A DNA stretch of 64,000 nucleotides from Bilabrum cf. latius (lineage: Eukaryota), in the NCBI GenBank assembly GCA_965178125.1, contig OZ237746.1, positions 806,001 through 870,000 on the forward strand, in the 5' to 3' direction. The notes beneath the pieces are model-generated. The model did not search any database. It was not told where the DNA came from and was given only the letters and a program-made list of their open reading frames with translations. This document shows, piece after piece, positions 2,111-54,941 of the stretch; within the stretch, counting starts at the first letter, position 1; each line of letters starts with the position of its first letter. A program made the translations under genes and the position numbers.

Positions 2111-2151
<41 letters not shown>

Positions 2152-6900: not shown

Positions 6901-7322
6901 GGAAAGAGAGGGGCATGCTGGAGGACTACGGGGAGGAGGACGAGAGGCTGGCGCTGCAGGGGCAGGTGCCTACTTCCGCGAGGGAGAAGCAGGAGATCGA
7001 CGGGGAACCCACGGAGGACCCCGAGAGGGTGTGGACCCCGGGGAACCCCCAGTTCGCCTGCAACTTTGGGGTCACGAGGGACTCGGAATCGGGAAGGGTG
7101 GACCCAGGCTCGACGGCGTACCGGGAGAGGGCGTGGGCAGTGGCGCGACCCGCGTACGAGGGTGAGATTTCTCTGTACACGCACCACGTGTTCCGTGAAT
7201 TTGTGGTCAGCAAGGTGGAGCAGACGGGGCTGCTGGGGCACGAGTCCACGCTGGCGGGGTCCGGTGTGTTCGGGCAGAAGTTCCAGGGGGGCGAGGGAGG
7301 GAGGAGTGGTGGCAGGCAGTGA
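3945..7322 (+). CDS. Hypothetical protein (~1125 aa), probable mitochondrial presequence
   Basis: The 1068-aa ORF 4116..7322 ends in TGA. Reading through TAG 3981 and 4110 extends it to ATG 3945, giving an Arg-rich, acid-free leader (MHTGNACTRLGRQTRSLRRLRPRNRALASSVRRS). Alternative starts are 4077 and 4116. Confidence 0.7.
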
Positions 7323-7580
7323 GCGTTGTTAAAGTTTTGTGAATAGATTCGGATGTACAGGGTTTTTTTCAACGTCCAGATGCTCGGGTTGCGTGGAGCA
7401 CTGGCCGTCGGTTTTTATCTTTTTCTTGAAAATTCAACGAATGGTGGTTGCAACCGCTCCCGGCGGCGAAACTGGCGAGGCGAGCAAAGGATTGCTCACA
7501 CTTGATGCACGCTTCGAATCGAGCGCGACTCTGCCACCAAGAAGCCATACATAAAACACACTAAAACTGTATTTGGCTGC

Positions 7581-9332
7581 ATGCAAGGTGAAGCGATTGC
7601 GATATCCTAGCGCGCGATGGTGGCTCCGCATTCATCGAGTGACCTCGCTGGTGTTCTGGAAGAGGCCTGGGGATGGAGCAGGCTGGCAAGCGCAATTTTC
7701 GCAATAGCTGCCATACTTGGTGTGATAGTTGCATTTGTAGACACGCAAAAGGTGGTTGGAATCATATTGCGCGCAGCGATTGGTGCACTTGCACTTGCTG
7801 CAGTTGCTTCCATCTGCAAGAGCTGCTAGGTCCAGCGAATTGCCGCAAACATGGAGAAAGAGCTCATTGAAGAGTAGTTACAAGCCACAATTGTTGAATC
7901 GCGGGCTGACCAAGTCGCAGACGAAAGCTACAGCCGCACATCGTCGGCAGAGTCCTGCCCCGCGGCTCCGCTCCAACTAGCACCGATCACCGCGGATGCT
8001 TCGGACACGGAGGCAGAGAGCATCATCTCCCCGGTTAGCACCACCGGCCTGTTAATGCACTCACCCACCCATTTTCACTCCATGTTTGGCGAACCGCCGC
8101 ATGAATAGACCGCAGCAGGGAAAGAGCGGGTCGTGAGTCGCCACAACCACCTCACCGTGGCAAGGCACGGACAGGGGTAGGGGCAGGGAGACGGGGGGCG
8201 GCAAAATCGCAGGCAGGGGTAGCAATAGCAGGTACCACCCTTGTCTCCCTGGCGGGCCCCGCGACTGGATTTCCTTCCGTCGGCGGACAGCGTTTCGGGC
8301 GATGGCACATCACCTGCGGAATCAGATTCCAATCACCTGGGATCGCAACCATTCGACCACGTTGGGACAGCACCAGCGAACGATCACGGGCAGCATATCC
8401 ACAGCCCGGGGCGGTCCAGCCCCCTGGCACCGCGGGGCCGGCAGCAGCAGCAGCAGCAGCAGAGCCGGCGCCAGCGCGGCCGTCGTCGTCGGGAGAGCAT
8501 CAGCAGCAGTGGTGGTGGCCGATGGCAGCAGTCTCCCGGTCGACGATCGCCACACCGTGCTCCCGCTGGGGTCAAAAGGGGTCGTTCGTCACACTAGCGC
8601 GCAGCACGCGTGTCTCCCACCGACATGGTGTGGATGGGCGCGCTGGGTCTCGGCCCTGAGCCGCAGAGTGCGGCTGCTTCGGGTTCTGCTGGTAGTCGGC
8701 TGGGGGGGCGCTCATCGAGGCATCCGGATGGGCGCGTTCCAGGGAACAGCAATCCTGCATAGGCCGGTAATGATCGGTCCTATCAATGGGAGGCGGCCTT
8801 GGATCGCACTCGCCCATCGGTGGGGGGAAGAGGGGCTGCTTGCTAGCATGCCACTGCCAGTGGTGAGGCATGGGCAGAGATGGGGCGGGGGCGTGGAGGA
8901 GGAGAGGATGTTGCAAGCGTGGGACTTTCCATTGGACAGGGGCAGCCAGCACCAGCTGAAGAGGCAACAGCGGTTCAGGCACAGGCACAGATGCTGGCAC
9001 ATGCACATGTGCAGGCACAGGCACATGTCCAGGCACATGCACCAGTCACCACCCCGTGCTCCATCTGCCTGGAGCCCATGGTCACCATCACCCCAGGCAG
9101 CAACACCGATACAGACAGGCGAGTCACCCTCCCATGCGCGCATGGGTTCCACGCTGGCTGCATCGAAGGGTGGGAGAGGTCGTGCATCGAGGCATCAAGG
9201 GAAGTGAGGTGTCCGGAGTGCAGGCATCCGTTCGGGGGGCGAGGAGTGGGTGGCGGAGGCGCAGGCGGGGGCGGGGGCGGTGATGATGAGGATGGGTACA
9301 GTGGCGACGACAGCGACTCGGAGTCAGACTGA
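7581..9332 (+). CDS. Transmembrane RING-H2 E3 ubiquitin ligase-like protein (~580 aa)
   Basis: ORFs 7617..7829, 8241..8597 and 8880..9332 are in one frame joined by ~10 TAGs. Two N-terminal hydrophobic helices; C-terminal CSICLEPM...LPCAHGFHAGCIEGW...CPECR; TGA stop. Start is 7581 or 7617. Confidence 0.8.
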
Positions 9333-10976
9333 GGCGATTGTGGTTTAACGATCCGGATGAAGGCTCGATTGAGGAAAGATACGGAACATCAAAACGCGCG
9401 GCGCCCCACCATCCACTGGATCCGTCGGTTGTAACTTACCCCGACACATTCATCACACCAATTCTTGACCGCAACGATCCCCGACACAATACAACTCGTC
9501 GATTATCACGCGACATCAATAGCGTATCTTCCATGTAATGAGGTTTTTTCATTGTGTAATTAGTGAATTACCATACAACCACCGTAAGGCTAACGAGAGG
9601 AGCAGCACGCTGATCCAAATGCCACTGAAACCACAGTCCACGCTGCATCCCTATTGTGCAATCATTTCGACGAATAGAATGCGCTATTGGTCGACTTCAT
9701 TACAGATCAAATAGGTATTTAAAACAAATCACCGCTCCAGTATGTCACAGAGAGTCCATTAGAACCGAGGATGGTCTCATTTGACGTCAGATCTCGATTC
9801 ATTTTGGGCAGAATCCAATTCACCACTGTCCTGATACACTTATAGTTTATTTATACATACGATTTGTTTGTGTATGGTACTGTATTTGTACAGGTCCTAC
9901 AATTTCGCAAGTTGTGGCTGTTTCCAGTGGTTTGGTACCATTCAGAACACAATTGTGTCAAATCTATGAGGCCAGTACTAGTTTGAGACTAATCATGGTA
10001 TTAATATACCTAATAAAAGGCAGTGTACGGATTTTCAGTCCCAATGGTGTAGAATAGCATGGCGTACTTCAGGTCTTCTGGATCTGGCCACCCGCACAGC
10101 TGCTGGTGCTGCTCGTGTCCTAATGATGGCCATAGTAGCCTCCTGTTCGATTTTCTGAATACGATCAATACAAAAAATGTAGTGGTTGGTCTCAATTCGC
10201 GGTAAGCTGCAGATTGGTGAGGTAAATGTGCAATAGCTAACTCTGCGGCCTGGTTCAGTCATCCTCACGGGAAACACCCTACTCATGAACCGCACAGCAG
10301 AATATGAGCGCGTTATTTGAATAAAGTCATCAATTTGCTCAGAATTATGAGGAGTGTAATCAAATTCAGTATCTCAGAGGGCCAATCGAAGCAAGTTTGT
10401 TGCGGCTGCCAGAGGGATGACCGTGGACCCTGTCGTGTCCAAATGAATCTTATTCAGACATTCGTCTGCACAGCAGCGTATAATTTAGCATCATTATCAT
10501 ACAGGTATATTTTTAGGTCTATTTTGTAGACTAGAAAGGGGTATGCGGGCAGTGTCGGGGTGTCGTGCGACACTAATCACACAGTTTTGGCGCCGCGCAA
10601 AGCTGCAGCTCCCTGCTAGAGGCCAATTCTTTGAATGGCATGTTAACAGACTTAATCTCATCGTATGGAGTTGAAAGGCGCACCAGCAGACTCGCAAGAG
10701 CGCGCTGAATCGAATTGCATCATGATTTCTTCTCCGAATTATCTGGGCGCCGCGCAAATTGCTGATCCGGAACCGGCAAAAACCAGTAAATTGTGTATTG
10801 TTCCGTTACATTCGACGGATTCGTTGTTGGATTCTGTGCATTTCTCGAACAGAAAGATACAATACGTGTGTACCAAAAGACGATATTATTAGAGTAGCCA
10901 TGCGTAATTATTGACCGTATCCGAGTCGTGTTGCTCGATCAAACGCCTGCCCAAAGGTGTATCCGTTGCGACCGGC

Positions 10977-13900
10977 ATGTCGGTCGAATCCACGTCGGAT
11001 GACCAGGTCATGTTCAATGCACGAGATGGGATGGAGATCTCCGCAGAGGATGAAATGAATGCAAAGAAACTGCGCGAGAGAGCGCCAGATGCTGTCGATT
11101 TGGCAACAGCAGAGCTTCGCGACGATAGGATGAACGGCATGAAGACGAGCTTTCGCGAAGTGCCCGACAGCGTGCTCTGGGGTCCGTCTGCAGACCTTGA
11201 AATGTGGACAGTGATGGCATCAGGCCGCGAGCTCCACCGCATCGCGCGTTTCAACGCGCAGAAGGAAGCGGCGGCCCGGCGCAGACTTGCCGAGCGCGAC
11301 TACCACCGCTCGCGACAGGGATACCCCCAGCTGGAGGGGAGCGCGATAGATGCGCCACAATCGAATTAGCAAGGAGGATTCAATGAAAGTTTCCGCTACA
11401 ATTCCCCAGGGGACGGTGGAACGGGCCGGTCCGCGCCCCTGCCGCCCATCGCGTCCGCTCGCTCCGGGACAGGTGTGACGATTGACCTCGCGCGGTCCAC
11501 GGCCTGGGACGCCGAAACCGACATGAGGCAAGGAGACACTCATCACACCGGCCTGGACCGAGGCTCCTCGTCATCGTCCTCGGTGCAGTACCTGGGTTCC
11601 AGGACCGGGGCTGGACCGGGGGGAGTGCCAGGGGGGGGAGTGTCCTTCGGGGGCGCCGGGGGCACACCAGGTGGGGGCGCCTCAAACCGCAAATAGGCAT
11701 GGGGCACGCCAAGGGCCGGGGCTGGGGCTGGGGTGCAGGGAACAACCGGGGCCCTGCATGCGTTTTCCGCCTCCTTACCTGCGCCAGCCACTGGCCATCA
11801 CGGTCAGCACGACACCGGCGTTGCGCTGCGACGGGCAGGAAGCGCACGTTCATTGGCTCCCCTTGGCGGATCCACGGCAGGAGGAAGGTCGGGTTTGGGA
11901 GCGGCAGGCGCTTCGGCTGGAGCCGGCGGGGTCCCCGGTCCGAATCCCTTCGCGCCGGTGGAAAAAGGAGGCCTTGGGATCGGGGTGACATACGGCTCCG
12001 AATCCAAGTCCCAGGGAACAAGCCGGCGGGTGCGCCGGGGCTTCACCACGGCGGGCGCTGTGGTGGCACCGGTGCTGGACACTTTGGCCACGGCGGATGC
12101 GCCCCCTGCCCCCGCCGAGGACGATCAGTTCTGCGAAGAAGTCTGCGGTGCCATCAAGTGCGCGGGGCTGGAGGGGGCGAGCGACGCCGACTTCAAGGCG
12201 GCTTCTGACAGCGCATGCGGGATGCTCAGGGTACTGGAGGCGGGGCACTGCGGAGATCTCACGGACGTGGGACTCAGGGCCGTCGCTTTGGGTAGCCCGC
12301 GGCTGGAGGTGCTGGACGTGAGCGGGTGCAAGGGGGTGGCTGGGCCGGGGCTGGCTGCGGTGGCGGATCACTGTTCCCTGCTGCAGGTCCTGAAACTGAA
12401 CGAGCTGCCGAGGCTGGACACGTGGGTCTGCAACCGGCTCGGGCTCAGCTGCACTGCACTGCGGGTGCTGGAGGTCTCGCAGGTCATGGCTCTGACAGAC
12501 GAATCGCTGGACCGGATGGTGAGAGGGTGCAGCGCACTGCGGGAACTCCGGATCGCGCGGTGCGCGCAGGTGACGGACCAGGGTGTGATGAGTGTGGCGA
12601 ACGCGTGCCCTCGGCTTGAGGTGCTGGACGTGAGCAGGAGGCCGCACGACGCGGCCTACGCCATCACGGACACGAGCCTGATGCAGGTGGGGGCTCGGTG
12701 CCCTGGGCTGGTGAGGCTGGACATCAGCGGGTGCGAGAACGTGAGCGACGTGGGTCTGCAGTACATCGGGGAGGGCTGTTCCGGTTTGGTGAGTCTAAGG
12801 GCGAGGGGGTGCGGGATGCTGGCGGACGCGGGCCTGAGGGCCGTGGCGGATCATTGTTCCGGTTTGCAGGAGGCGGCGCTGGGGGGCTGCCGGCGGGTGA
12901 CGGACCTGGGCCTGCGGGCGCTGGCGCAAGGGTGCAGGGAACTGCGGCAGCTGGACCTGGGCGGGCTGTTCCTTCTGACGGATGGGAGGGAGGCCCGGGC
13001 GGATCGGATCATTCGGGAGAACAAGGGCAGGGGCAGGGGCAGGGGCAGGTACGCCGGGAAGAATGGGAGGGGGGTAGGGAGAAAGACCGGAAGCGGGTCT
13101 AGGCGGCAGCGAGGAGGACGAGGTACAGGTGGAGGTGGCAAAAGGGCCCAGGGAACAGGAGTCACAGTGCCGGGGGACCAGCGGGTCCGCAGGGGCAGGG
13201 GCCCAGACCCGCTTCCACCGCCCCCGCAAAGGCTGCTGGAGCAGGGGGCTGGGCTGCTGACGGCGGCGCAGGGAAAGCCGCTGGTGAGGCACCTGGCCGG
13301 GGGCAGGGGTCCAGGGAACAAGGGCGGCGGTGCGATGGGGCGGTCCGGAGGGCGGCTCGGGAGGGCGGGTGCAGTGCACGATGCTGAGAGCAAGGAGAGG
13401 CCGCTTCCCGACTTGGGCATGAGTGTGACGAGTGGAGCCTTGTCCCGGGACACCCTGCCTCATCAGTCCCAGGGACGTGGGGTGGCCCCGGGCTCGTCAC
13501 ACCCTGGCTCGGGCCGCGGTTGGACCGCCGCGGAACTCGAGCACACCCTCCGGACGAAATCCGGAGCCAATTTATCCGAGGCGCTCGCCGCCAGCAAGAC
13601 GGGGCATGGAGGTGGTGTGACGAGTGGACGGATCCGCGCCCCTCCGCTGCCCGTCCCCCCAGAGGTGACGGGCCTGCGTGCCCTAGCCTTCACGAGGGCC
13701 CCCCTCCGGGTATTGAACCTGGGAGGGTGCCAACAGGTGGGTGACGAGTCGCTGGTTCCGCTGTGCCGCGCGTGCGGACCCACACTGACGTCACTGTGCG
13801 TGTCATCGTGCGGAAACCTGACCCCATCCGGACTGGCGCTGGCACTTCCCTCGCTGCCCCGCCTCCGGAAGCTCGTCGCGCAGGACCTACCCGGAGCCGT

Positions 13901-16900
13901 AAATGCGGGGGTGATGGAGGCCGTGGGGGCCGCGGCCACACGAGGGGAGGCATGCTCCCGGCTGTCCCACGCCGATTTCACGCGGTGCACGGGGGTCGTG
14001 GACCTGGGTGTGGCGGCGCTGACCCGGGGGTGCCTGGGCCTAGAACGGCTCATCCTGGACGGCTGCACCCGGCTCACCGACCTCAGCATGTTTTCAGTCG
14101 CGGAGCGGGAGTTCAAGCCCGGCTTGCTGGAGCTCCGGATCGCTGGGATCCCAGCGGTGACGGACACTGGCGTGAGCTGGGTGGCGATGCGGTGCTCCAG
14201 GCTCCTGTGGCTGCAGCTGAAGGGATGCTCCGTGTCCTTGGCGGGTTTAAAGGCCATGTCGGCGGGGTTCCGGGACACGAGGATCCGCAGCGACGACCGC
14301 TGGTTCGGAGTGGTGCCCACGGAGACGGCCCTGAGGAAGAGGAGGATCGAGGAGTACGGGGTGGGCTGGATGGCGGCTCTGCGATTGCAGTCAATCGCGA
14401 GGGGGAGGAAGGCGCGGGCGGTGGTCAGGAGCATCCGCAGGAAGCATGCGGGGCGAAGGGCCGTGGTGCAGCTGCAGACCAAATGGAGGACCGTCATGGC
14501 CAGGAGGCGGGTGGACCAAATGAGGAGGGAGCGAGACACTCGTCACACCGCCAGCGTGCTGGTGCAGAGCTTCTGGAGGCGGTGCATGGCCCGCACTGAG
14601 CTGGCACGGCGCCGGGCCCGCAGGGCGGAAGAGCGGAGGCACCTCGCCGCCGCTCGGATCCAGGCCCTCTGGAGGGGCGTGCTGGCCCGCAGGCAGCTTG
14701 ACAGGGAACAAGAGGAGGCCAGGCGCGACCGCATTGCCCGGCACCGTGCGGCACGCATCGTGCAGAGGGTATGGAGGGGGGTGCTGGGCCGTAGGCAGTT
14801 TGCCCTGCACGCGGCGCGGGTCCGATCCTGGATGGCGCAGCAGGACCGCGCGGCGCGGGAGATGCAGCGCATTGCAAGGGGGCACGCACAGCGCCGCCGC
14901 GTCCGCCGCATGAAGAAGAAGAGCGTGGAGCAAGCCGCCGTCCTGGTGCGCGCCGCGACTCGGATCCAGACGGCGTACAGGGGGCGCCTGGCCAGGCGGA
15001 TCCGGGAGCGGCTGGGGCTTCAGGCCGAGCTTGAGCATGACGCCGCCACGTGCATTTAGGCCAGCTGGCGAGCCAAGCAGGGGCGGCTGGCCTCACACAT
15101 GATCAGGGTGGCTCGGCGGGGCCAGGCGGAGGAAGGGGCGGCTCTGCTCGTGCAGAAGGCGTGGAGGGGGAGGCAGGGGCGGTTCGCTGCTTTTTTGCTG
15201 TCTAGGGCCAGGGCAGAGAAGGAGAAGGAAACGGAGAAGGCGGCTCTGTTCGTGCAGCGGGTGTGGAGGGGGCACCGGGGCCGCAAGGCAGTTGCCGCGA
15301 GGCGGGTGGAGATGATGCGGGCGATGCTCAAGCAGAGGAACGTGTTCATGTGGGCGGCGTCCACGATCCAGAGGGTGTGGAGGGGGGTGCTGGCACGGCG
15401 GAGGGCAGGGGCGCTTCGGGAGGAGAGGGCGAAGAGGTGGGTGCGGCTGCCCATGGACGAGATTGACGATGAAGGTGAGGATGAGGACGAGATTGGTGGT
15501 CAAAGTGGGGAATAGGGTGGGCAAAGCGGCGAGCGCAGCCGGGAGGTGTGGTTCGACAGGAACAGCGGGGAGGTGCGCCGCCGGGCCCCGCAGGAAGTGC
15601 TGGACCTGCTGCCCAAGCCCCAGTGCGACAACTGCGAGAACAGGACGGCGTGGTTCGAGTGCCGGCAGTGCCGGGAGTACTATTGTGACGAGTGTTTCCC
15701 CGCAGTGCACTCCGGCGGCAAGCGCGCGAAGCACGCATTCCGTCCCCTGTTCGACTACTACGGCAGGCGGGTGGACTATGGCGACGGGGACTGGCCGGGT
15801 GCCTGGCCCTCGGAGATTGAGCAAGACGAGGAGAGGGGGTGGCACGCGCGGGTTGCAACTGCTCTGGAGGACGCGCCCCCAGGGTGGGGGGGCGGGGGCG
15901 GGGGCGGGGGTGTGGGGGGTGTTCCCCCGGGGCCCGAAGACCCCCTCTCGGCGTCCATGGGGTCATCTATGTTCGCGGAATCCACCGGTGGAGCAGCAGA
16001 GGTGCGCAGCACCCCCGTCGGGATGGAACACCAGGTGCAGGGGCAGGGGCAAGACACGTGGGGTGCTCCCGGCATGCAGCTGCAGGACACTTGGGGCCAC
16101 GGCAGCATCGCCTCCCAGGGCCACGGTCAAGGGGGGTATGACGAGGGCGATGGGCATGGGGGGTATGACGAGGGCCAGGGTCAAGTGGGGTATGACGAGG
16201 GCGATGGGCATGGGGGGGCGATGGCGATGGGCATGGGCATGGGCTTGGGCATGGGCTTGGCTGGCGGAGGGGCAGTGTCCCCCGGATCCACCGGTGGATG
16301 GGCGGACGTGACCGGGGGCAGCGCCGCAATGAGCCATGGACTCGGGAATGGCAAGGGCTAGGGGGACGCCTTTGGTGCGCAGGCCACGCAGGCCGCGGCT
16401 CTGGCGGGTCGGGACGACGGCCTCCACAGCGGGACAGCGCACGCCACTGTGGAGGAGAGGGAGGGCGGCAACGATGGGTACGAGAAGAGGCTGGATCCCA
16501 TGGGCGGAGACGTGGTGTACCTGGATACCAAGACCGGGGCGGCCACTCGGAAGAGGCCTGTGTTCTTCGCCACGCCCCGGCCTGACGAGGACGAGGACGA
16601 CGATCTTTTCCTCGGAGATGCGACCGGTGGCGCAGTCGGATCCACGCCCGCCGGTTTGGCCACCCCGAACCGACCCGCGGACGGCCTTTAGCCCCTGGAG
16701 CCAGGGGCGGGCGGCTGGCTCAAGTACCTCGATGACGCGTCCGGGGCCGTGTACTACTTTCACCCCCACACAGGTGCCACCCAGTGGGAGAGGCCAATCG
16801 AGTACTCCACGCCCCGCGATCACCGAGGCAGGGCGGGGGTCCCTGCGCCCAACCCGGCGTCGGCTGCGGCGACGGACGGGATGGGCTGGGGGGGAAATGG

Positions 16901-17270
16901 CCCGGGCGGTGCATCCGCTGCTGTGTCCGGGCACGGTCAGGGTCAGGGTCAGCAGCTGGCTGCGCCTGGCACGGGAGAGTGGAGCAAGTTCGTGGACGAC
17001 TCCTCGGGAGCTGCCTACTACTTCAACGGGAGCTCTGGGGAGACGACCTGGGACCGCCCGGTCGGTTTCGTGACGCCTAGGCTTAGGCATGCTGGTGCGG
17101 ACCACGGAGGTGGTGGTGACGGTGGGAGTGATCAAGGGCACTAGCAGCAACAGTCGCAGCCGGAATGGAGCAAGTTCGTAGACGAGAGCAGTGGCGCCGA
17201 GTACTACGTGCACCTGGTCACGGGCGAGAGCAGATGGGAGAGGCCGGTGGGCTTCGTGACACCGAGGTGA
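10977..17270 (+). CDS. Multidomain protein (~2097 aa): FBXL-type Cys-containing LRRs, many IQ motifs, B-box-like Zn finger, WW domains
   Basis: Seven ORF-track segments plus a short C-terminal piece lie in one frame, joined by 7 TAGs and ending at TGA 17268-17270. Motifs: LDVSGCxxVTDxGL repeats, IQxxWRGxxxR repeats, CDNC...CRQC...YCDECFPAVH...H, and WxKFVDxxSGxxYYxxxxTGExxWERP. Confidence 0.85.
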
Positions 17271-17678
17271 CGACATTTGTACCGTATGGTCTGGAACTAG
17301 ATACATCCGGATTCCTGATTTGGTAGATATGGGACTGCTTTTGTGTTTGTACAGGACCTTGTGATCTGTGCCGGATGACACCACCGGTGCACTGCACTGT
17401 ACGCGGCTGCCGGATGTGATCCATTTTTGTAGGCTATGATAATGAATACTCTGGTTCGTCTATCCAACAAGTCCACATACCCACAAGGGTATAATCTCCA
17501 GTGTCTTGCAATCTCGGCCGGATTGGCCTGGTTGTTCAGCGTCGATTTGCCGGCCGCAATTCTTCTTTTGTGGCGAGCACTTTTGGGGTGGGGTGAATTC
17601 TCTCCGATTTTCACCCCGGTACTGGAGTAACTGGACCAAATCAAACAAATTGCGCACCCTGACTATCTCATCAGTATC

Positions 17679-22265: not shown

Positions 22266-23156
22266 TTGAATGAATCCAGTGGATAATAAAGAATCTGGGA
22301 AGCGCTGCTCCTGAGCGCCCGAATAGCACGCGGCTCGATTGCCGCACTTGTTTCTCATCCGCATGTGGTCTGATGCCCCCCCCGCTCCCTGATCCGAGTC
22401 AAACTTGTGCGGCATGTGCTGAACAACACTCGTTGCAGCACATGCCACACAAGTTCTGACACAACACATCCGGATCCGATCTTTGTTATATGTACTCGGA
22501 CATCAGGATTGAAGCAACGGGGAGCAGAGGTGAGACGGAAGACGAGGCGGGAGGACAGGAGGTGGAGAAGAAGAGGGGGACACCGGCACAGGCGACGACA
22601 GTGCGGTGTCAACAGGGAGAACACAACGGGAGGAATGGGGGCTCCAGGTGCAAGGCACGAGGGAGACGCGGGTGGCAGCGGACTGCATGGCCAGCAGCAC
22701 GCAGAAGGCCAACAGGTGGGTGGACAGATGGGGCGCACGGCAGGTCGGCCAGGACCGGCGCGTGCAAGCTGAAAGGATAGGGCCAAGGTGGCGATGCTGG
22801 GAGCAAAGCACACGGTCCCTAGGGCGGGGAACAGGAACAGGAAGCCATGTGGCGACGAGGCCAGTCGGGTGCATGGGGAAAGTGGTGTGTACATTCGTAG
22901 TGTCAGATGAATACCGCATTCAGGTGGACCGGTGAAGAACCAGTCGTTCGGGGTGAAGCCCAGTGAGTCCGCGGGACCGGGGGCAGGAATTTTTGCCAAC
23001 CAGTGGGGTTTGCAGCAGCCGTGAAGATGAGCCAATGGGTGTGGTTGAAGGAACAAATCTGATCTGTAGTCTAGGTTCAATATTCGAATGTTTACCGCAC
23101 CTCATCTTACCAATCTGTTGGGTAATTGCCATCCCTGCTGCACACAGAGCTGCTAG

Positions 23157-42700: not shown

Positions 42701-45700
42701 TGGAGTTGGTCCATCGCCGGGTGACGAGGGGCCTAGCCGGAGCACACCACCTGCACAAACTGTGGTCATGACCTTCACTCTGGGACCGCATGCCTCCACC
42801 TCGCTCGATGTGCCGGGCAACGGCTGCACCGCCGGGCAGGTCAGGCTTCCACCGATGCTCGGCTGCGTCGTTGCCTGCGCCCCTCCATCCGGCCACCGGC
42901 ATTTGCGCAGCAGCTGCTCGTCTACGGCGCCATACAGCCCCAGCAACCCAGGCTCACCATCCATCGTCACGTTGAACATCCCGTCTTCGTGGCCCGGGCC
43001 ACCCCCAGCAGCATCGAGGTGCTGCAACCTCCCCAGCGACCTGGCCAGCTGGGTCCAGCGGCCCGTGGCTGTGTATCCCACCACATCTACGGATGCTGCT
43101 ACTCTCGTCTGCACCCCTCGGCCTCCCCATATTGTTTGCAGGGATGCAGGACTGGGTGCACCTTGCCCCGCCATGGATCGCAGCACACCCGCCATCGCAG
43201 TGACATTCGGGGCAGAGACCGACACAGCCGTGGAGTTCTCATGCACCCCAAACGCGCCCGCTGTAGCAAGGTCCGGCCACCCCGTGACTAGCCCATCGAC
43301 TCGGCCAATCCTACCACCGACCAGGTCGCTTGCCACTGCTGCAATGGGACGAGCCCCGAGTGGGACCACCACTCTCCACTCACCGCTGGCATCCACGTCC
43401 CCTTTCTCCCATCCGTCGGGTGGCAGCACCTACAGCCCATAGCCACCGACACTACCGCTGCCGCCTTCGATAGTCTACAGCATCACCATGGCGGTTGACA
43501 GCTCCGCGTCGCTTCGCATAGGCAGCAGTCGATCCAAGGCACCAACGGCAGGGTACGTCCATCTGCGGGACGTTTCGGTTCCGCCCTTTTCCACTGCATG
43601 CAGCTGTGCTTGCAGCAAGTCGGTAGCGGGGGCCGGCAGCCACACCCACAGCTAGCCCTCAATACCGTTGCCCTGATCCACGGTCCTCCAACTGGCACTG
43701 CTGGTGCTTGTAGTGCTGGCCGTGAGCATGGACCTGCTGCGACGTGTCGGGTTGTGCGTGGGCGTGGGCGTGGCACTGCTGGTGCTTGTAGTGCTGGCCG
43801 TGAGCATGGACCTGCTGCGACGTGTCGGGTTGTGCGTGGGCGTGGGCGTGGCACTGCTGGTGCTTGTAGTGCTGGCCGTGGCCGTGGGCATGACATCGCT
43901 TGCGTTCGACCATGCGACCAGTGAAGGACCCCCGTCCGTGGCCTGCACTTGCACCTGCACTGGCACCCTCACTGCCACCCGAAGATACTCTCTCTCTACT
44001 CCTTCCTGCAGCACCACATCGCCGCCAGCTGTCAGTGCCTGCACCCTCTCACTCCAAGGCACCAAGGCATGTTCCCTCGGAGAGCCACTCACCGGCATTT
44101 CATGTGTTGCCTATCCATTGATACTCAGTCCCCACATGGATCGAGAGGCCGGTCCCTTGGCCAGCTGTGCAGCCTCGAGCTGAAGATCTCTGACACTGGC
44201 CCGACACGCGATCGACATGCCGGTGGTTGGCGAGGCAGAACCGCTGGCTGTGCCGTTTCTCGTGGTATTCGAGGTAATAAGAGGGCTTTTGCATGCAGTA
44301 TTGGCACCAATGATCACGTTTACAGCTCCCGAAGTCCGGTTGGCGATGGCGAGTCCACCCCCATGTAGCTGCACCTCAACCTCGACGGTGTCACCTCTGT
44401 CGGCAGGCCAGCCCCGCACCCATGCCTCGCGCAAGCTCATGCACAGCTCGCAACTGTCATTGTCAATCTCGCGGAGTGCGGAATCCGAGACACTGGACAC
44501 GATGGTCCGGCCCAGGAACATGACACGTTCTGGATGAGCCTGCGAGTGAATAGGGCTACAATCATGCAGGAATCAAAGGAAATCGAATGGGAAGTGAGCT
44601 AAATGCAGCGAAGGTGCGGAACTAGTCGGGACTTACCGGCGCAGACGGCACTGTGGGCGTTGGGCTGCTTGTGGCAGTGGCACTCGGGCTGGCAGTGGCA
44701 CTCGGGCTCGCAGTGGCACTCGGGCTGGCGGAGGGTGTCTGTGAAGGCGATACTGATGGGCTATGAGAGGCCGAGGGCACAGCAGCACGCAACTCAAGGA
44801 TGTGCACTGCTCCTTTATACGAATCGTGCCCATCGGCCCCCACGGCTAGCGTCACTGCCCCAGGCCTACTCATGTTGGAAACAGCTGCCACTGCCACCCC
44901 GAACAGATCCCCAGGATCCAGCTAACTATCGATTCCTCCTGCCGTGGCGGAGATCTTCTAATGATGTTTCACCGTACCATTCGATCGCAGGAACAGCACC
45001 CAAACGGCTCCTCTATCAATGTCAACAGGAACACCGTCTTCATCCCCACTCGCTCCCACGGCCAGCTCCGGTGCTCCATCGCCATCCATGTCATTCAAAG
45101 AGGCCAACGATATTCCAAAAAAGTCCTAAGCACCCAGCTGCCCATCAAAGTTCCCTGATGTAGCCGATATCTTCTGGTGGCCCTTCACCGTGCCGTTCGA
45201 TCGCAGGAACAGCACCCACACGGCTCCTCTATTGGACCCTGCATCAAACCCGTCATCATCCCCAGATGCCCCTACGGCTAGCCATTCGGATCTATCGCGG
45301 TGTGTGTTGCTCAAATGAGCTACCGCAACACCAATAGCATCACCGTAGTCAAGCTGTCCTTTGAAGCCTCCCGCCGTAGCGGAGATTTTCTGATGGCCCT
45401 TCACCGTGCCATTCAATCGCAGGAACAGCACCCACACGGCTCCCCTGTCACTGCCAACAGGACCACCGTCGTCATCACCGTTCGCCCCAACGGCCAGCTC
45501 CGGCAAACCATCGCCATCCATGTCATTCAAAGAGGCCACAGAGCGCCCGAACTAGTCGCCAGCATCAAGCTGCCCATCGAAGCCTCCCTCCGTGGCGGAG
45601 ATCTTCTGATGACGCTTCACGGTGCCATTAGATCGCAGGAACAGAACCCACAAGGCTCCTCTGTTCAATGCAGCGGGAACGCCATCGTCGTCACCGTGAG

Positions 45701-48700
45701 CTCCAACGGCCAGCTCCGGCAAACCATCGCTGTCCATATCTCCCAAAGTGGCTACTGATATTCCAAATTGATCTTTGGCATTTAGCTACCCATCGAAGCC
45801 ACCCGTCGTGGCGGAGGTCTTCTGATGGGCCTTAACCGTGCCATTCGATCGCAGGAACAGCACCCACACAGCCCCTCTATCAGATCCTGCAGACCCACCG
45901 TCATCGTCCTATCGCGCACCGACAGCCAACTCCGGCACGCCGTCATCGTCCATGTCGCCTAAAGAGGTCACAGAGACTCCAAAATAGTCACCAGTATCAA
46001 GCTGCCCATCGAAGCCCCCCTCCGTGGCAGAAACCTCCTGCTACATCCCGTCCAGCACGCTGCCAATAGGGCCAGACGAGGGACTCGCACTAGGGGTAGG
46101 AGATGGAGACGGAGTCAAAGAAGGAGTCGTGGAGGGCGAAGGGGTGGTCGATGCGGAGGGTGACGACACTGACGGGCTATGAGAGGCCGAGGGCACAGCA
46201 GCACGCAACTCAAGGATGTGCACTGCCCCTTTATACGAATCGTGCCCATCGGCCCCCACGACTAGCGTCACTGCCCCAGGCCCACTCATGTTGGACACAG
46301 CTGCTACTGCCACCCCGAACAGATCCCCGGCATTCAACTACAAGCCCCCTGTCGTGTTCGAGATTTTCTAATGGCCCTTGACAGTGCCATTTGCTCGCAG
46401 GAACAATACCCAAACGGCTCCTATGTCGTTGTCCGAATTGATATTTGTCTATGCCCCTACGGCCAGCTCCGGTGCTCCATCGCCATCCATGTCCCCGAGA
46501 GATGCCAATGCCGAGCCAAACAAATCAAAAGCATCCAGCTACCCATCGAAGCCCCCCGCCGTGGCAGATATCTTCTGATGGCCCTTCACCGTGCCATTCG
46601 ATCGCAGGAACAGCACCCACACGGCTCCACTGTTGTCTCCTGCAGGGACACCGTCATCGTCATACCATGCCCCTACGGCCAGCTCCGGCACTCCATCGCC
46701 ATCCATGTCCCCGAGAGAGGCCAATGATGATCCCAAACTATCTGCATCATCAATCTGACCATCGAAGCCCCCTGCCGTATCAGAAATCTTCTGGTGGCTC
46801 TTCACCGTGCCGTTCGATCGCAGGAACAGTATCCATACAGCTCCTCTGGTGTGCCCAAAACCAATGGCGTCATCATCCCAATTTGCTCCCACGGCCAGAT
46901 CAGGCACGCAGTCACCATTCATGTCTCCAAGAAATGCCAATGAGAATCCAAAATTGTCTCCAGCATTCAAATGCCCATCGAAATCTCCAGCCGTGGCGGA
47001 GATCTTCTGATGGGCCTTAACCGTGCCATTCGATCGCAGGAACAGCACCCAAACGGCTCCTCTCTCAGAATAGTCAGCATCATGACCACCGTCGTCATCC
47101 CAAATTGCTCCCACGGCCAGCTCCGGTACTCCATCGCCATCCATGTCCCCAAGAGAGGCCAATGACGATCCAAACTAGTCCCTGTAATCCAGGTCCCCAC
47201 TGAAGCCACCCTCTGGGGTAGAAATTTGCTGAAATCCCTTCACAGTGCGATTCAATCGAAGGAACAGTATCCATACAGCTCCTGTTTGATTCTTCGAAAA
47301 ATCGTATTCGGGTGCTCCTACAGCCAGCTCCGATATACTATCGCCGTCCATGTCCCCAAGGGAGGCTACCGAAGCACCAAAACGGGCCCTTGGATCCAGA
47401 TGTATGTCAAAGCCCCCCTCTGTAGCGGATATCACCTGCTGCATCCCGTCCAGCACGCTGCCAATAGGGCCAGACGAGGGACTCGCATTAGGGGTAGGAG
47501 ATGGAGACGGAGTCAAAGAAGGAGTCGTGGAGGGCGAAGGGGTGGTCGATGCGGAGGGTGACGACACTGACGGGCTATGAGAGGCCGAGGGCACAGCTGC
47601 ACGCAACTCAAGGATGTGCACTGCTCCTTTATACGAACCGTGCCCATCAGCCCCCACGGCTAGCGTCACTGCTCCAGGCCTACTCATGTTGGACACAGCT
47701 GCTACTGCCATCCCGAACAGATCCCCGGCATTCAACTGGATCTACAGGCCCCCCTCCGTGTTCGAGATTTTCTAATGACCCTTGACAGTGCCGTTCGACC
47801 GAAGAAACAGCACCCACACAGCCCCTCTGTCACTGTCTGCAGCACCACCGTCATCATCCCCATTCGCCCCAACCGCCAGCTCTGGCATCGCATCGCCGTC
47901 CATGTCACCCAAACAAGCCACAGAGCGCCCGAAATAGTCATCAGCAAACAGGGGCCCATCAAAGCCGCCTCCTGCCGTGGCAGATATCTTATGATGGCCC
48001 TTCACCGTGCCATTCAATCGCAGGAACAGCACCCACACAGCCCCTCTTTCGCTATCTGCAGGACCACCGTCATCGTCACCATTCGCCCCCACCGCCAGCT
48101 CCGGAGCTGTATCGCCGTCCATGTCGCCCAGACATGCCAATGAAGAGCCAAAATAATCATTTGGGTCTAGATGCCCATCAAAGCCTCCCGACGTGGCGGA
48201 GATCTTCTAGTGCCCCTTTACCGTACCATTCGATCGCAGGAACAATACCCACACGGCCCCTCTGTTGTCTCCTGCAGAAACGCGATCATCGTCCCGATGT
48301 GCCCCCACCGCCAGCTCTGGAGCAGCATCGCCGTCCATATCGCCTAGAGTGGCCACTGAGATTCCAAACTCATCATTGGCGTCCAGCTACCCACCAAAGC
48401 CCCCCGCTGTAGTGGAGATCTTCTGATGACGCTTCACCGTGCCATTCGATCGCAGGAACATCACCCACACGGCTCCTCTCTCAGACCACACATTACCACC
48501 ATCATCATCCCAATGTGCGCCTACAGCCAGCTCCGGCACTCCATCTCCATCCATATCACCCAAAGTGGCTAACGAGGATCCAAACAGGTCCAAATTTCCC
48601 AGCTATCCATGAAATCCCCCATCTGTGGCGGAGATCTTCTGATGATGCTTCACCGTGCCATTTGATCGCAGGAACAGTACCCACACGGCTCCGGTGACAG

Positions 48701-51700
48701 ACCCTGCAGGAGCGCGGTCGCTGTCAGAGTTCTCTCCCACTGCCAGGTCCGGCACTCCATCGCCGTCCATGTCACCAAGTGAGACCACTGAGCAACCAAA
48801 GTACTCTAAGGCATCGGGTCCATCGGTAAACAACGGATTGAATCCCCCCTCTGTGGCGGAGATCTCCTGCTGCATCCCAACCAGCACGCTGCCGAATGGG
48901 ACAGGGGAGGGACTCGCACTAGGACTTGACGAGGATGATGGAGACGGAGTCAAAGAAGGGGTCGTGGAGGGCGAGGGGGTGGTCGACGCGGAGGGTGACA
49001 CCGACGGGCTGGGAGATGATGACGGGGTGGCTGCGCGCAGATCTAGGAGGTGCACAGCACCTGAACCCGAGTCGTGCCCATGGGCACCCACGGCAAGAGT
49101 CACTGCCCCAGGCCCTCTCACGTTGGACACAACGGTCACTGCCACGCCAAACCAATCCCCATCGTCCAGCTGCAGGCCTTCCGTCGTGTTTGATATCTTC
49201 TGATGACCCTTCACCGTGCCATTCGATTGCAAGAACAGCATCCACACGGCTCCTCTATTAGAATCTGCAGGGCCCCCATGATCGTCCCGCCACGCTCCCA
49301 CAGCCAGCCATAGTACTCCATCGCCGCTCAAGTCACCTAACAAAGCCACTGAAGCACCAAACAAATCAATGGGGTCCAGCTACCCATCGAAACCTCCTGA
49401 TATTGCTGATATCTTCTGATGACGCTTCACCGTGCCATTCGATTGCAAGAACAGCACCCACACGGCTCCTCTGCTACTGCCTGCAAGACCACCATCATCA
49501 TCACCAATGGCCCCCACCGCCAGCTCCGGCACTCCATCGCCGTCCATGTCACCGAGAGAGGCCAACGAGGATCCAAAATAGTCACCAGCATCCAGCTGCC
49601 CATCGAAGCTCCCAGCAGTTGCAGATATCTTCTGATGACGCTTCACCGTGCCATTCGATCGCAGGAACAGCACCCACACGGCTCCAATGCCATAACTGAT
49701 GCCGTTATCATCACTAGATGCCCCAACAGCCAGCTCTGGGACTCTATCGTCATCTAAATCGCCCAGAGTGGCCGTTGAGGCTCCGAACTAGTCGCCAGCA
49801 TCCAGCTGCCCATCGAAGCTCCCAGCAGTTGCAGATATCTTCTGATGACGCTTCACCGTACCATTCGATCGCAGGAACATCACCCACACGGCTCCTCGAC
49901 CAGACGAATAATAATAAAAATCATCATCATCACCACCGTCATCGTCCCAGTATGCTCCCACGGCCAGCTCTGGTACTCCATCTCCATCCATATCCCCGAG
50001 AGAGGCCAACGAGTTTCCAAACTAGTCCAACTAATCCAGCTGGCCATCGAAGCCGCCCACTGCGGCTGAGATCATCTAATGATCCCTCACCGTGCCATTT
50101 GATCGAAGGAATAGTACAAATACAGCTCCACCGTGATCCGACCAATCGTGGTCGGGTGCTCCTACAGCCAGCTCCGATATGCCATCACCGTCCATGTCCC
50201 CAAGGGAGGCTACCGAAGCACCAAAACGGGCCCTTGGATCCAGATGTACGTCAACGCCCCCCTCACTAGCTGAGATCTCCTGCTGCATCCCATCTAGAAC
50301 GGTGCCAAATGGGAGAGGAGAAGGTGATGCACTAGGTGTTGGTGACACCGATGGGCTGGGCGAGGCTGGCGGAACAGCAGCACGCAGCTCCAAAACATAC
50401 ACGGCACCTCTGGACAAATCGTGACCGCGTGAACCCACAGCTAGCGTCACCGCCGCAGGTCCGCGCAAGTTTGCTACAGTGGACACTGCCACGCCAAACA
50501 AATCACCAGCATTCAGCTGCCCATCAAAGCCTCCCGACGTTGCAGAGATCTTCTGGTGACCCTTCACGGTCCCGTTTGATCGCAGGAAGAGCACCCACAC
50601 GGCCCCTCGGTCATTGCCCACTGCAACGCCATCATCGTCTCCTTGTGAGCCTACACCCAGCTCCAGCACTCCATCGCCGTCCATGTCACCGAGAGAGGCC
50701 AACGAGGATCCAAACTAGTCACCAGCATCCAGCTGCCCATCGAAATCACCCTCAGTGGCTGAGATCTTCTGATGACGCTTCACCGTGCCGTTCGATCGCA
50801 GGAACAGCACCCACACGGCTCCCATATCAGACCCTGTCATACCACCGTCATCGTCACCATGTGCCCCAACAGCCAATATAGGGGGCTCGTCAACGCTGAA
50901 CATTCCTAGTGAGGCGACCGACCTACCAAAGTAGTCACTACCATCTAGGTTCCCAGTGAATCCCCCAGCTATGGTCGAGATCTTCTGGTGACCCTTCACA
51001 GTCCCGTTTGATCGCAGGAAGAGCACCCACACGGCCCCTCGGTCATTGCCCACTGCAACGCCATCATCGTCTCCAAAAGACCCAACGGCCAGCTCCGGCA
51101 CTCCATCGCCGTCCATGTCACCGAGAGAGGCCAACGAGGATCCAAACTAGTCACCAGCATCCAGCTGCCCATCGAAATCACCCTCAGTGGCTGAGATCTT
51201 CTGATGACGCTTCACCGTGCCGTTCGATCGCAGGAACAGCACCCACACGGCTCCCATATCAGACCCTGTCACACCACCGTCATCGTCACCATGCGCCCCA
51301 ACAGCCAATATAGGGGGCTCGTCAACGCTGAACATTCCTAGTGAGGCGACCGACCTACCAAAGTAGTCACTACCATCTAGGTTCCCAGTGAATCCCCCAG
51401 CTATGGTCGAGATCTTCTGGTGACCCTTCACAGTCCCGTTTGATCGCAGGAAGAGCACCCACACGGCCCCTCGGTCATTGCCCACTGCAACGCCATCATC
51501 GTCTCCAAAAGACCCAACGGCCAGCTCCGGCACTCCATCGCCGTCCATGTCGGCCAGAGTAGCCATTGAGATCCCAAAATAGTCATCAACATCAAGGGAT
51601 CCATCGAAACCACTTTGCGCGGGGGATATTTTATTCTAAAATCGTGGTAATGCGCTGCCAAGCGGAACAGGTGATGGACTTGGACTGCCAATCACGTTCG

Positions 51701-51764
51701 TACTGGCGAGCGAAATCACAGTCACAATCAAGTGTATACACCTGCGAGGTTGTAATCGATCCAT
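36788..51764 (-). CDS. Giant cell-surface protein (~4959 aa): signal peptide, 30 FG-GAP (integrin-alpha-type) repeats, long ectodomain, Cys-rich stalk, ~8-9 TM helices; exons 44637-51764 and 36788-44539
   Basis: All FG-GAP ORF fragments are in one frame, and all post-intron fragments are in one frame. About 38 interruptions, all TAG. N-terminus MDRLQPRRCIHLIVTVISLASTNVIG; repeats FGxSxAxLGDMDGDGVPELAVGA...GAVWVLFL; TGA at 36788-36790. Confidence 0.85.
43693..43880. repeat. 78-bp coding tandem repeat (~2.4 copies, Thr/Ser-rich mucin-like)
   Basis: Units start at 43693, 43771 and 43849; they encode TASTTSTSSATPTPTHNPTRRSRSML. Confidence 0.9.
44540..44636 (-). other. Spliceosomal intron (97 nt, phase 0) in the FG-GAP gene
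   Basis: GTAAGT...TCGCAG; removal exactly joins the two long frames. Confidence 0.85.
50545..51550. repeat. Near-perfect 432-bp tandem duplication (two FG-GAP repeats per unit)
   Basis: ORFs 50715..51134 and 51147..51566 are almost identical and offset by 432 bp. Confidence 0.9.
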
Positions 51765-53135
51765 CAAAGATGCACGATTTGTCTAGTATTGTTCGCATCC
51801 AGATGAAGCAATCAGATCGTCAACGCACGGCTCGAGAAATATAGCAACGCAAGTACCCGGATCATAGGAGTCACATTGATGTTAGACTACAAGAGATGCT
51901 CGACTAGGAGGTATCGTTCGCAGGAGTTCTTGCAGGAAAGCCCGACCCGCACCCCCACAATTAGCCTGCCCCTCAAGCGGGCCTTGTCAGCCTCATCAAC
52001 CAGTGCTTCATGCGTTCAAGCCATTATTCTATTAGTAAGTGTATGCATGGGTCATAAAAGTGTTGAACAACCAGTATAAAAACAGCAACAGTCGATTCAT
52101 TTGCATTTGGACACGCGTCCAATTCTGGACACTCGCACTCTAGCGAATACTTTTTCTTACTTCATGGTACCACAGAGATACGTGTACATCAGCCTTGCTT
52201 ATTAAACGTAGCACAGATGTAATCCTTGCTTGGCCTTCGCTGAGCGAACTCCTTCAAACGCAGCACCTCACTGGATACCAACCAGCACACAATTCACACG
52301 AACGAAACCGACCCTTCGGAACACTGCAGTGCAGGCACCGGGGCTGGGCGGTTCTATCTCCGTAGCTCGAGGCTTCCTCCTTATTTCGTGATGGTAGCTG
52401 TATAATTATGCTTTAATTGTTATTATGTAAACGAAACGCACACCGGTGCTTCGACAGTTGCTCGACAACACAAGTATTTCGCTCAGTATTTCGCTCAGGA
52501 ACAACACAAGTATTTCTTTTGGTTTCGTGGCACCATGCTAGAATACTGTGTGTATTAGGTTCGCGATCAATTAAGGATGGGGGCCAGTTGGAGTCCTTTG
52601 CTTGCCATTCATCCGGGTACGGTCACAGAAGTCACACCAGGCCACATGCGGATGGATGTGGGTCCGCAGCATGTCATACCTGCCACAAAATAGCATGTGA
52701 TAAGCGCATTCTCCGCTGCTAAGCATAGCTTGGAGCTCAAGTCGCCCAGTCCAATGCAGTACAATCCAATCCAGGATACAGCCTGGCTTTGCAATCGCCA
52801 GGGCTCTCGACCAGCCTGAGGCCTGCTATCGACTGCAAGCCATTGCACGGTCGTTTTCACAATATTATGGATATGGGTATGCGCAGCATCCGCAGTACAA
52901 GTATATTCCGTCGTAACTGCGTCTTGACAGCATACTCGCCAAGCCAGCCTCAATGCTAGACATCTAGCCAACAATGAATCAGGCCCAGACTTGCACGGCA
53001 TGCCGACCCCTTTGCCCAAACTCGATCAGTTTGGCTGGGTCACCAAGTTCACCATTTCCGAAATACAACAACGCTGGCTATAGGAAGGAGCATGCATGGA
53101 ACCTCGATTGACCAACCATCCGACCGATCAACCGA

Positions 53136-54941
53136 TCAGAGGGCCGGTTTCGCCCCTCCGCTGCTCACCTCGCCGTTGCCAGCGAGCGCCCTGCCCTCCT
53201 CGTCCAGCGCCGCCGCCAGCCTCTTCTCCAGGTCCGAGGGCTCGGATCCCGTACCGGCCCCTTGTTCCCCCGACTCCCCGCCTTCCCGCACCCTCTTGCC
53301 CTCTTCGTCCCGAGAGCTCTCTACCGCGGCAGTGGTGGCCAAAGCCACCGGGTCCAGCCGAAGCAGCCGAAGCATCCCGTTTCCCACGTCGCCCCCCGCA
53401 GCAAGCCCCTCGTGCGCCGCGTCTGCCGCTTCCTCGCCGTACCTGTGCCGCACCACGGTCTCGGTCGCTCTCGCGCTCTCTTTGCCCACCACCCTGAGTG
53501 CCTCCTCCATCCCGTCCCACACGTCCCCCAGAGCAAGCAGAGAGGCGTGTCCCACCTGCATCGCTGCCTGGGCCGTGCTGCTCTACCCCGCCGCCTCGAT
53601 CGTCTCCTTGCCCTTCTCCGTGGATGCCACGGTCTTGTACACCGCCCGGCCCAGCCCACGGGCCATCTCCACCGCAGTCACCACCACCCCCGAGGCCACC
53701 GTGCTGGCGGCGCCGGTGGCCATCCTGGCCCTGGCCAGGTTCCGCTTCGTGTTCTCCGAGACCTTCACCTCCTTGCCCTCCTCCACACCCTCCGAATGTC
53801 CCACCACGTACGTCCCCAACCTCCCGATCCCGTAGCCCACGTACTGCGCGCCCACCACCAGACCCCGCCCCGCCACCTTGCCGCTGTAGCTGATGGCTCC
53901 GCTGACCCTGTCCACCGTCAGATTGTCCTGCACCGTCTGCACCGCGCTCCCAGCCAGTTCCCTGCCCTTGCTGTACAGCGCCGTGGCGTTCTCCACCGTG
54001 CATTGTTCCCTGGCAGCGGCCAGCGAGGTGCCCACTGCCGCGAGCCACCCGCTGGCCACCGCTGCCACGGAGGAGGATGACCCGCCCTCTTCTTCGCCGT
54101 CCTCTTTCTCCGGGTCATCGCTTCCACCTGCACCTGCATGCCCTGCACCTGCACCTGCGCCTGAGCTCTCGCCCTCTCCCTTGCCGGCTGGCTCCTCCTC
54201 CATCCCCTGCTCCTTCCCCACGGGCGGGTCCTCCTCCTCGGCCTTGGACCCGGCTCCATGCCCCGCCCCGCTGCCGCCCGCAGAGGCACGTTCCGGCTCC
54301 GGATCCTCCCGGTCCTCCCCCTCCCCGTTGTGCATGGCCAGCCGGAGCGCCGCCGATGCCACCGCCTGCTGCTCGTCGAGCATCTGCTCAGCGCCCATGC
54401 CCCTGCTCGCAGCCTCAGAGTTGACGGCCACGGCGGCATCCGCGTCCCTCGGAGCGACGACCTGCCCCGTCTTGGAGTCCACCAGCTGCAGCCCGCGGGC
54501 CAGCTGCGCCTCCAGGACAGCCAGGTCGCCGTCCGCGCAGTCGTCCGAGACGCGGAGGCAGTGGAACTCGCGCGCCGCCGCACCGGGAAAGACGTACACG
54601 CCTGGCCCTGATCTTCGCGCTAGCTGCCCTGACAGAGGGTACACCCAGGTGCCAACTCGAAGCATCACGATGCGTCCTTCCGTATCTGTGACTTGCTCGG
54701 TGCTCGCCGCGTCGGACGCGGACCCAGGGGTTGGCGGAACGTCGCTTACGCTTGCTCGCACGATGACTAGGTCGCCCTGCTGCATCATGCCAACCTTTCC
54801 GTCCTTGACCACGCTGGCGTTGCACAGTGGCAACTGCAAGAGGATTTCTGCGCTGTCTTTGGGTTCCTCTCCGCTGGCTTCTCGCTGCATGATGGCAGCC
54901 GTTGGGTGATCGCTCGCGAATGAAGTGGAAACACCTGCCAT
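53136..54941 (-). CDS. Senescence/spartin-associated domain protein (~601 aa)
   Basis: C-terminal ALGDVWDGMEEALRVVGKESARATETVVRHRYGEEAADA resembles the spartin senescence domain. One TAG (53583) lies inside that domain; TGA stop. Confidence 0.8.

Follow-up and report, generated by a model that had tools for sequence, protein, structure and literature searches.

Changes in the meaning of the codons UAA and UAG nearly always go together. In the stretch of DNA analyzed here they do not. The stretch comprises 64,000 nucleotides of Bilabrum cf. latius (GenBank assembly GCA_965178125.1, contig OZ237746.1, positions 806,001 to 870,000) and is referred to, over its whole length, as the window; all positions given below are those of the window. 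The DNA is nuclear and belongs to a GC-rich eukaryote with a compact genome and few introns. Sense UAG codons are frequent in its genes, several of which have Pfam domains, and they specify glutamine, as synonyms of CAG. UGA is a stop codon, and UAA is not used as a sense codon at appreciable frequency. As UAG is sense and UAA is not, the two codons are uncoupled. Most likely, the code of the window is a UAG-only reassignment to glutamine of the Iotanema type, i.e., the pattern of NCBI translation table 15, which makes it an added case of a known but rare kind. The reading that is favored here, as the probable one, is that UAG is translated as glutamine, that UGA ends genes and that UAA is still a stop codon, be it a rarely used one.

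The uncoupling is already apparent from the reading frames. The window has a GC content of 62%, and under the standard code it contains few long open reading frames (ORFs), with 12 ORFs of at least 500 amino acids that together span 9,311 amino acids. When TAG is read as sense, these become 22 ORFs with 26,068 amino acids, so total length nearly triples, and tightly packed long genes appear on both strands. Reading TAA alone as sense yields 13 ORFs of this size (9,981 amino acids), one more than the standard code, and reading both TAA and TAG as sense merely lengthens a few 5′ ends compared to TAG alone. Codons were tallied in 12 gene models with 18,066 codons, of which 10 are complete and two run off the edges of the window. 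Within these models TAG is found in frame 98 times, TAA not at all, and TGA 10 times, in every case as the terminal codon. Glutamine is additionally encoded by 526 CAG and 126 CAA codons, such that UAG accounts for 13% of codons in the glutamine family. TAA does occur in these genes in the two remaining frames, 30 and 46 times. An initial annotation of this DNA had reported the lack of in-frame TAA in genes that do use CAA, and this is borne out by the tally. The same holds for its observation that TAA closes the frames upstream of two genes, at 10905 and 17628.

Several lines of evidence identify glutamine as the residue specified by TAG. The LRR/IQ/B-box/WW protein encoded at 10977–17270 (+ strand) has 11 IQ motifs, the defining glutamine of which is encoded by CAG in 10 motifs and by TAG (15057–15059, + strand) in the remaining one. 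The FG-GAP repeat protein of 2,400 amino acids, encoded at 44562–51764 (− strand), contains 26 in-frame TAG codons, and five of these fall in the conserved glutamine column of the family. At this position of the 'H-Q-K-I-S' motif, the repeats have CAG 18 times, TAG five times and CAT once, and at a second conserved position they have CAG 11 times, TAG five times, CAT three times and another codon three times. Homologues from outside the window were taken as the best 150 proteins from a HMMER scan of a representative library. These contain 1,989 repeat domains, in which the glutamine column of the motif holds glutamine in 47% of cases, with threonine (9%) as the next most frequent residue. A profile made from the outside sequences only was used to score the 23 TAG codons that fall on profile columns; glutamine came first with a log-odds score of 28.5, followed by arginine (19.7) and tyrosine (10.1), while leucine and serine were outside the six best-ranked residues. 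In control tests the same procedure recovered the true residue for 8 of 9 codons, the miss being CAA, with 6 sites. Moreover, runs of glutamine and GQ dipeptide repeats include TAG codons. Within the glutamine family, the share of TAG drops as the GC content at third codon positions of the gene rises (Spearman −0.91, 12 genes), as is expected for a synonymous codon under mutation bias.

Exchange between TAG and CAG is also seen among sequencing runs. The window DNA is present, as a whole or in part, in eight listed runs from four studies, which are designated here by X and a number where they need to be told apart; X1–X4 among them are DNA runs. For the gene of a membrane protein of 2,577 amino acids (36788–44521, − strand, 13 in-frame TAG codons), 26 of the 40 listed variants between runs are synonymous. 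Two of the 40 are TAG/CAG swaps, at 38308 and 40963, and one of these swaps is present at half depth in a DNA run. Across 37600–41800 many variants stand at approximately half depth in DNA run X1, and others occur only in X5, which carries a different organism label. This suggests two haplotypes for the half-depth variants of X1, and a related strain for the variants that are found only in X5.

Two of the runs appear to give a view of the RNA. In contigs of both X6 and X8, position 29032 is joined to 29158, and a contig of X8 also joins 29316 to 29443, such that the introns of the V-ATPase proteolipid c gene (28755–29527, − strand; exons 29443–29527, 29158–29316 and 28755–29032) are spliced out. 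No such joints in this gene are present in DNA run X1. Depth in X6 goes from approximately 2 in spacers up to 198 on the V-ATPase gene. Because of the spliced joints and the very uneven depth, X6 and X8 are read as transcript-derived. The listed pieces of X6 contigs span 10 TAG codons, among them every one of the five in the gene at 23157–27773, and show 0 differences from the window. Since the TAG codons are unchanged in spliced, RNA-like contigs, RNA editing of UAG to CAG does not explain them and is not supported. More generally, the explanation that the code is unchanged and that the TAGs are sequencing errors, traces of pseudogene decay or RNA-edited sites is close to refuted, and nothing speaks for it beyond the mere occurrence of TAG in frame. 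Besides the TAGs retained in the RNA-like contigs, it is contradicted by the fact that only one type of stop codon interrupts the frames (98 TAG vs. 0 TAA and 0 internal TGA), by the presence of the same sequence in runs of four studies and by the mostly synonymous nature of the listed variants.

The lack of TAA as a sense codon goes far beyond what base composition predicts. If TAA stood to TAG as CAA stands to CAG, gene by gene, 29.2 TAA codons would be expected in the gene models, and the probability of finding none, as observed, is approximately 2e-13. A tblastn search of the 12 window proteins against the window itself similarly returned 101 TAG codons, one TAA and one TGA as stop codons within homology matches. 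Because the use of TAA as sense joins no genes and extends none at the 3′ end, its absence does not depend on the way in which the models were drawn. These results bear directly on the ordinary code in which both UAR codons are glutamine (NCBI table 6), with TAA avoided through the high GC content. This code shares with the window the reading of UAG as glutamine and UGA as the only terminator seen, in 12 of 12 genes, and a single in-frame TAA (29916–29918) does exist in an ORF derived from a paralogue. However, CAA makes up 19% of the CAR codons of the window, GAA and AAA have similar shares of their pairs, and approximately 29 TAA codons are therefore predicted beside the 98 TAG codons where 0 are found. 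Table 6 is thus very improbable. The initial annotation had named this code, with GC-driven avoidance of TAA, as the finding that would overturn its claim of uncoupled UAG and UAA codons. Within the limits of a single window, this code is rejected, and the uncoupling passed every test within the window: TAG shows the behavior of a synonym for glutamine, and TAA is missing to an extent that GC bias does not predict.

The single TAA deserves separate attention, as it is the only one found in frame and lies outside the gene models. It is located in an ORF at 29610–30338 (+ strand), a truncated copy of the neighboring LRR genes that is confined to their N-terminal ~100 codons and has 38% identity to the one at 33889–36609; the rest of the gene is absent. 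If the TAA is passed over, the frame stays open to a TGA at 30336–30338. In the alignment with the LRR paralogue the TAA is placed opposite asparagine rather than glutamine, and in X6, the RNA-like run, the truncated copy has the same depth as the intergenic background. We read this ORF as a decaying duplicate that is apparently silent, but a short gene terminated by the TAA is another possibility.

All gene ends seen in the window are TGA. The tally comprises 12 ends, namely those of the 10 complete models and, in addition, those of the VOC gene and the V-ATPase c gene. The initial annotation had listed 11 ends, each of them TGA; all 11 are confirmed, but the list was incomplete, since it lacked the end of the FG-GAP gene (44562–44564), which brings the count to 12 of 12. 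That TGA works as a stop is seen for the gene at 23157–27773 (− strand). No second in-frame stop follows within 150 nucleotides (nt) of its TGA, and the RNA-like contig stops approximately 63 nt after it; the end of the contig at this distance, with no other stop nearby, indicates that TGA is a working stop. UGA is, therefore, a stop codon in the genome of the window.

With every TAG read through when the models were made, a TAG that acts as the last codon of a gene would go unnoticed by construction. This leaves some room for an ambiguous UAG that, like the codons of context-dependent meaning in Condylostoma or Blastocrithidia, would be read as sense within genes but would terminate translation close to some 3′ ends, and the last TAG of the FG-GAP gene indeed lies just 20 codons ahead of its TGA. 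Yet TAG occurs evenly all along the genes, with counts of 11, 11, 6, 7, 7, 8, 6, 9, 7, and 8 in successive tenths of their length, there is no pile-up at the ends, and every model reaches a TGA, although these ends are not defined by orthologues. An ambiguous UAG is, on this evidence, improbable to about the same degree as table 6.

The role of UAA as a stop codon is less firmly settled than that of UGA. With a TAA share of 5% among gene ends, the probability of 12 TGA out of 12 would be 0.54; for shares of 10, 20, and 33% it would be 0.28, 0.07, and 0.008, respectively. The uniform use of TGA is thus only moderately beyond chance. The local composition would permit TAA, as the 3′ flanks of the 12 genes (100 nt each) contain 10 TAA vs. 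27 TGA and the + strand of the intergenic DNA contains 76 TAA vs. 144 TGA. When ORFs of at least 60 codons that are closed by TAA are scored, 79 of 80 come out as non-coding, and the only one with a coding score, of 69 codons, lies within a low-complexity stretch rich in proline and glycine. The caution of the initial annotation, that a stop function of UAA is not demonstrable from this window, stands with 0 of 12 ends being TAA.

Two related possibilities follow from this. In the first, UAG is glutamine, UGA is the sole working stop and UAA is effectively unassigned, with no tRNA that decodes it and no gene that ends at it. GC pressure would have driven UAA from gene ends, and eRF1 may have lost both UAR codons. 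Such a code would lie midway between the standard and the ciliate-type code (code 6). It agrees with the absence of TAA from all 12 ends in spite of the TAA codons available in flanks and intergenic DNA. It agrees as well with stop usage that is clearly different from that of published UAG-only lineages, which, where the reported sections include stop counts, mostly end their genes in UAA. Against this, 12 ends are too few, as a TAA share of 5–10% would leave all of them TGA with the substantial probabilities given above. An unassigned UAA is accordingly a possibility to be taken seriously, but a clearly less probable one than a UAA that is retained as a rare stop. To our knowledge no nuclear code is described in which UAA is unassigned, although no search was aimed at one. 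The second possibility is more specific and somewhat less likely still: the lineage would be on its way to the ciliate-type code, with gene ends cleared of UAA by GC pressure, an eRF1 that sees only UGA, a tRNA-Gln(CUA) that has taken over UAG, and a UAA that is neither stop nor sense. We regard this as rather unlikely.

For the favored reading, in which UAA is kept as a stop, the rarity of UAA is most likely due to GC pressure, which favors TGA. The decoder of UAG would be a tRNA-Gln with anticodon CUA, which is one mutation away from tRNA-Gln(CUG) and would pair with UAG but not with UAA. In parallel, eRF1 would have changed such that recognition of UAG is lost or weakened while that of UGA is kept. 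A code of this type would also go with the lack of a tRNA with anticodon UUA and with alterations in the stop-recognition motifs of the eRF1 N-domain (GTS, NIKS, and YxCxxxF). The proposed decoder and eRF1 change follow the logic described for known cases, in which a tRNA with a CUA anticodon decodes UAG without decoding UAA, and recognition of UAG by eRF1 has to cease (PMC5304391, PMC11687900; these two papers are cited here and below from part of their text).

A number of points weigh against this reading. All evidence comes from a single 64-kb window. The window contains neither a tRNA gene nor any Rfam match, and a gene for eRF1 is likewise absent from it, so both the CUA tRNA and the change in eRF1 are inferred. 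The absence of TAA from 12 gene ends limits the share of TAA to at most 22% (95% upper bound), and the one in-frame TAA described above belongs to the same side of the balance. As to the RNA, X6 carries the label 'RNA? (probably DNA)', and none of the listed runs is recorded as RNA, X6 and X8 being taken for RNA by an automatic guess and by the spliced joints. With respect to the amino acid, one TAG of the gene at 36788–44521 has AAG in its place in X5, and two variable repeat columns pair TAG with TAT, TAC, TTG, or other codons. Furthermore, the nine TAG codons of the hydin gene fall in variable or gapped columns, unconserved among 15 homologues, and are therefore uninformative on the residue either way.

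Few nuclear lineages are known to break the coupling of UAA and UAG (PMC5304391, PMC11687900). The fornicate Iotanema spirale uses UAG for glutamine with UAA and UGA as stops, and 104 of 119 gene ends are UAA and 15 are UGA (PMC5304391). For its eRF1, a T32G change has been reported. The window resembles Iotanema in that UAG alone is reassigned, to glutamine, in that UAA is never sense, and in the predicted decoder, tRNA-Gln(CUA). It differs in its stop usage, with UAA at 0 and UGA at 12 of the window genes and a GC content of approximately 62%, and in its affiliation, since nothing ties the window to fornicates and the nearest relatives of its hydin are found elsewhere. Among ciliates, UAG-only reassignment to glutamine has been described for Hartmannula sinica, Trochilia petrani, and Protocruzia tuzeti (PMC11687900). 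These share with the window both the codon change and the exclusion of UAA from coding sequence. In all ten phyllopharyngean genomes analyzed, however, UAA is the commonest stop and UGA the rarest one, ending 1.7–13.1% of genes (PMC11687900), unlike the 12 of 12 UGA in the window. Low GC content is common among ciliate genomes (PMC11687900). In the table 6 code of ciliates, dasycladaceans, and Hexamita, UAA is a sense codon as well, which sets it apart from the window frames in the way described above.

Other codes separate UAG from UAA with a different outcome. In the uncultured rhizarian exLh, UAG is leucine and 56 of 71 gene ends are UAA (PMC5304391). UAG is also leucine in a phyllopharyngean ciliate and serine in Scotinosphaera, and in ciliate PL0344 UAA is lysine and UAG is glutamate (PMC5304391, PMC11687900). 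The window has in common with exLh, this phyllopharyngean ciliate, Scotinosphaera, and PL0344 that UAG and UAA differ in meaning, but the amino acid is not the same, as the profile test puts glutamine first. The precedents that the initial annotation had named are thus found in print, Iotanema and exLh in PMC5304391 and the phyllopharyngean ciliates in PMC11687900, with the remark that UAG in exLh is leucine and not glutamine. In the literature that was searched, the coverage of which does not extend to supplements and a 2025 paper on Heterolobosea codes, UAG as glutamine is unreported for a stramenopile, a bicosoecid, or a GC-rich flagellate.

Two window proteins were compared for the affiliation of the lineage, and neither places it. 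The hydin gene (55794–63998, + strand), whose product is a flagellar protein by name, contains nine in-frame TAG codons and continues past the window end. In the protein collection, its product is nearest to an NCBI entry labeled Symbiodinium sp. KB8 (40% identity, on a 10-kb contig), followed by one of the oomycete Achlya (30%). The presence of a hydin gene implies that the organism is probably flagellated, and the 'flagellate' label of the earlier description is therefore reasonable. A gene of the VOC/glyoxalase family (27905–28468, + strand, 187 amino acids) has no TAG and ends in TGA. Its product is 74% identical to a protein of Cafeteria roenbergensis, the best named eukaryotic match, and approximately 75% identical to bacterial ones; being similar to eukaryote and bacteria alike, it places the lineage nowhere. 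The part of the Cafeteria annotation report used here mentions no variant nuclear code (PMC6972860). When hydin was used to scan JGI metagenome contigs, 590 patterns were matched, none of which encodes a relative, and a scan of GTDB genome contigs with the gene at 4116–7319 gave 48 pattern matches and no relative. In the search for homologues of the Senescence-domain protein, there was no match among 8,000 scored candidates.

The products encoded in the window are eukaryotic, comprising RING, LRR/IQ/WW, kinase plus armadillo, FG-GAP, Senescence-domain, hydin, V-ATPase proteolipid c, and VOC proteins. Neighboring gene models are separated by 11 spacers of 40 bp to 3.7 kb, of which 6 are shorter than 500 bp. 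At the left edge, a gene with a TrAA12-like match (1–3717, − strand, nine in-frame TAG codons) has its 3′ end beyond the window. It is followed by a gene of 1,125 amino acids without a Pfam match (3945–7322, + strand), which has two in-frame TAG codons and a TGA end at 7320–7322, and by the RING-finger gene (7581–9332, + strand), in which several of the 10 in-frame TAG codons are within GQ repeats or glutamine runs and which ends in TGA as well. The LRR/IQ/B-box/WW gene already discussed contains seven in-frame TAG codons and ends in TGA, and the frame upstream of it is closed by the TAA at 10905–10907. The kinase and armadillo-repeat gene (17679–22265, + strand), with six in-frame TAG codons and a TGA end, has the TAA at 17628–17630 in the same upstream position. 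The gene at 23157–27773 encodes 1,538 amino acids with five in-frame TAG codons. The V-ATPase c gene ends in TGA. Its two introns (29033–29157 and 29317–29442, − strand) are of the GT..AG type, measure approximately 125 nt each and share their first eight bases.

Further to the right are the two LRR genes. The one at 30807–33652 (+ strand) is in two frames, 30807–31469 and 31469–33652, and has five in-frame TAG codons in its second part and a TGA end. The TGA of the first ORF overlaps the ATG of the second at 31467–31471. Its paralogue at 33889–36609 (+ strand), also with five in-frame TAG codons and a TGA end, is one ORF. An X6 contig (31267–31995) is colinear with the genome across the frame break; a mutational frameshift, pseudogene status, or recoding could each account for it. 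Next come the membrane protein gene, which ends in TGA, and the FG-GAP gene. The FG-GAP protein has 40–63% identity to the 150 best representatives; among six of these homologues that were checked, three carry the name of an organism, and these are proteins from bacterial metagenome-assembled genomes (Planctomycetaceae, Myxococcota, and Eisenbacteria). The family may therefore be of bacterial origin in this eukaryote. The Senescence-domain gene (53136–54941, − strand), with one in-frame TAG and a TGA end, precedes hydin.

Two further features concern the DNA between genes. AT-richer islands of 1.4–1.6 kb at 9333–10976 (GC 0.45) and 51765–53135 (GC 0.49) separate genes on the same strand and contain no coding-like ORF. 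Between two convergent genes, the element at 23031–23082 has a summed contig depth of approximately 683 in DNA run X1, compared to approximately 43 nearby, and several contigs end in it. This depth, together with the contig ends, indicates a repeat that is present in high copy number in the genome.

The reassignment has a practical consequence for the organism itself. Gene callers that apply the standard code break genes at every TAG, and its public annotations will accordingly be fragmented. As regards how the genetic code evolves, a GC-rich organism outside the ciliates with UAG as glutamine and UGA as stop would add a case that arose under the opposite mutational pressure. Such a case bears on the question whether base composition decides which stop codon is captured, and on how eRF1 separates UAG from UAA and UGA. 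If the lineage were indeed halfway to the ciliate-type code, its unassigned UAA would be a natural case of codon disappearance before reassignment in a eukaryotic nucleus.

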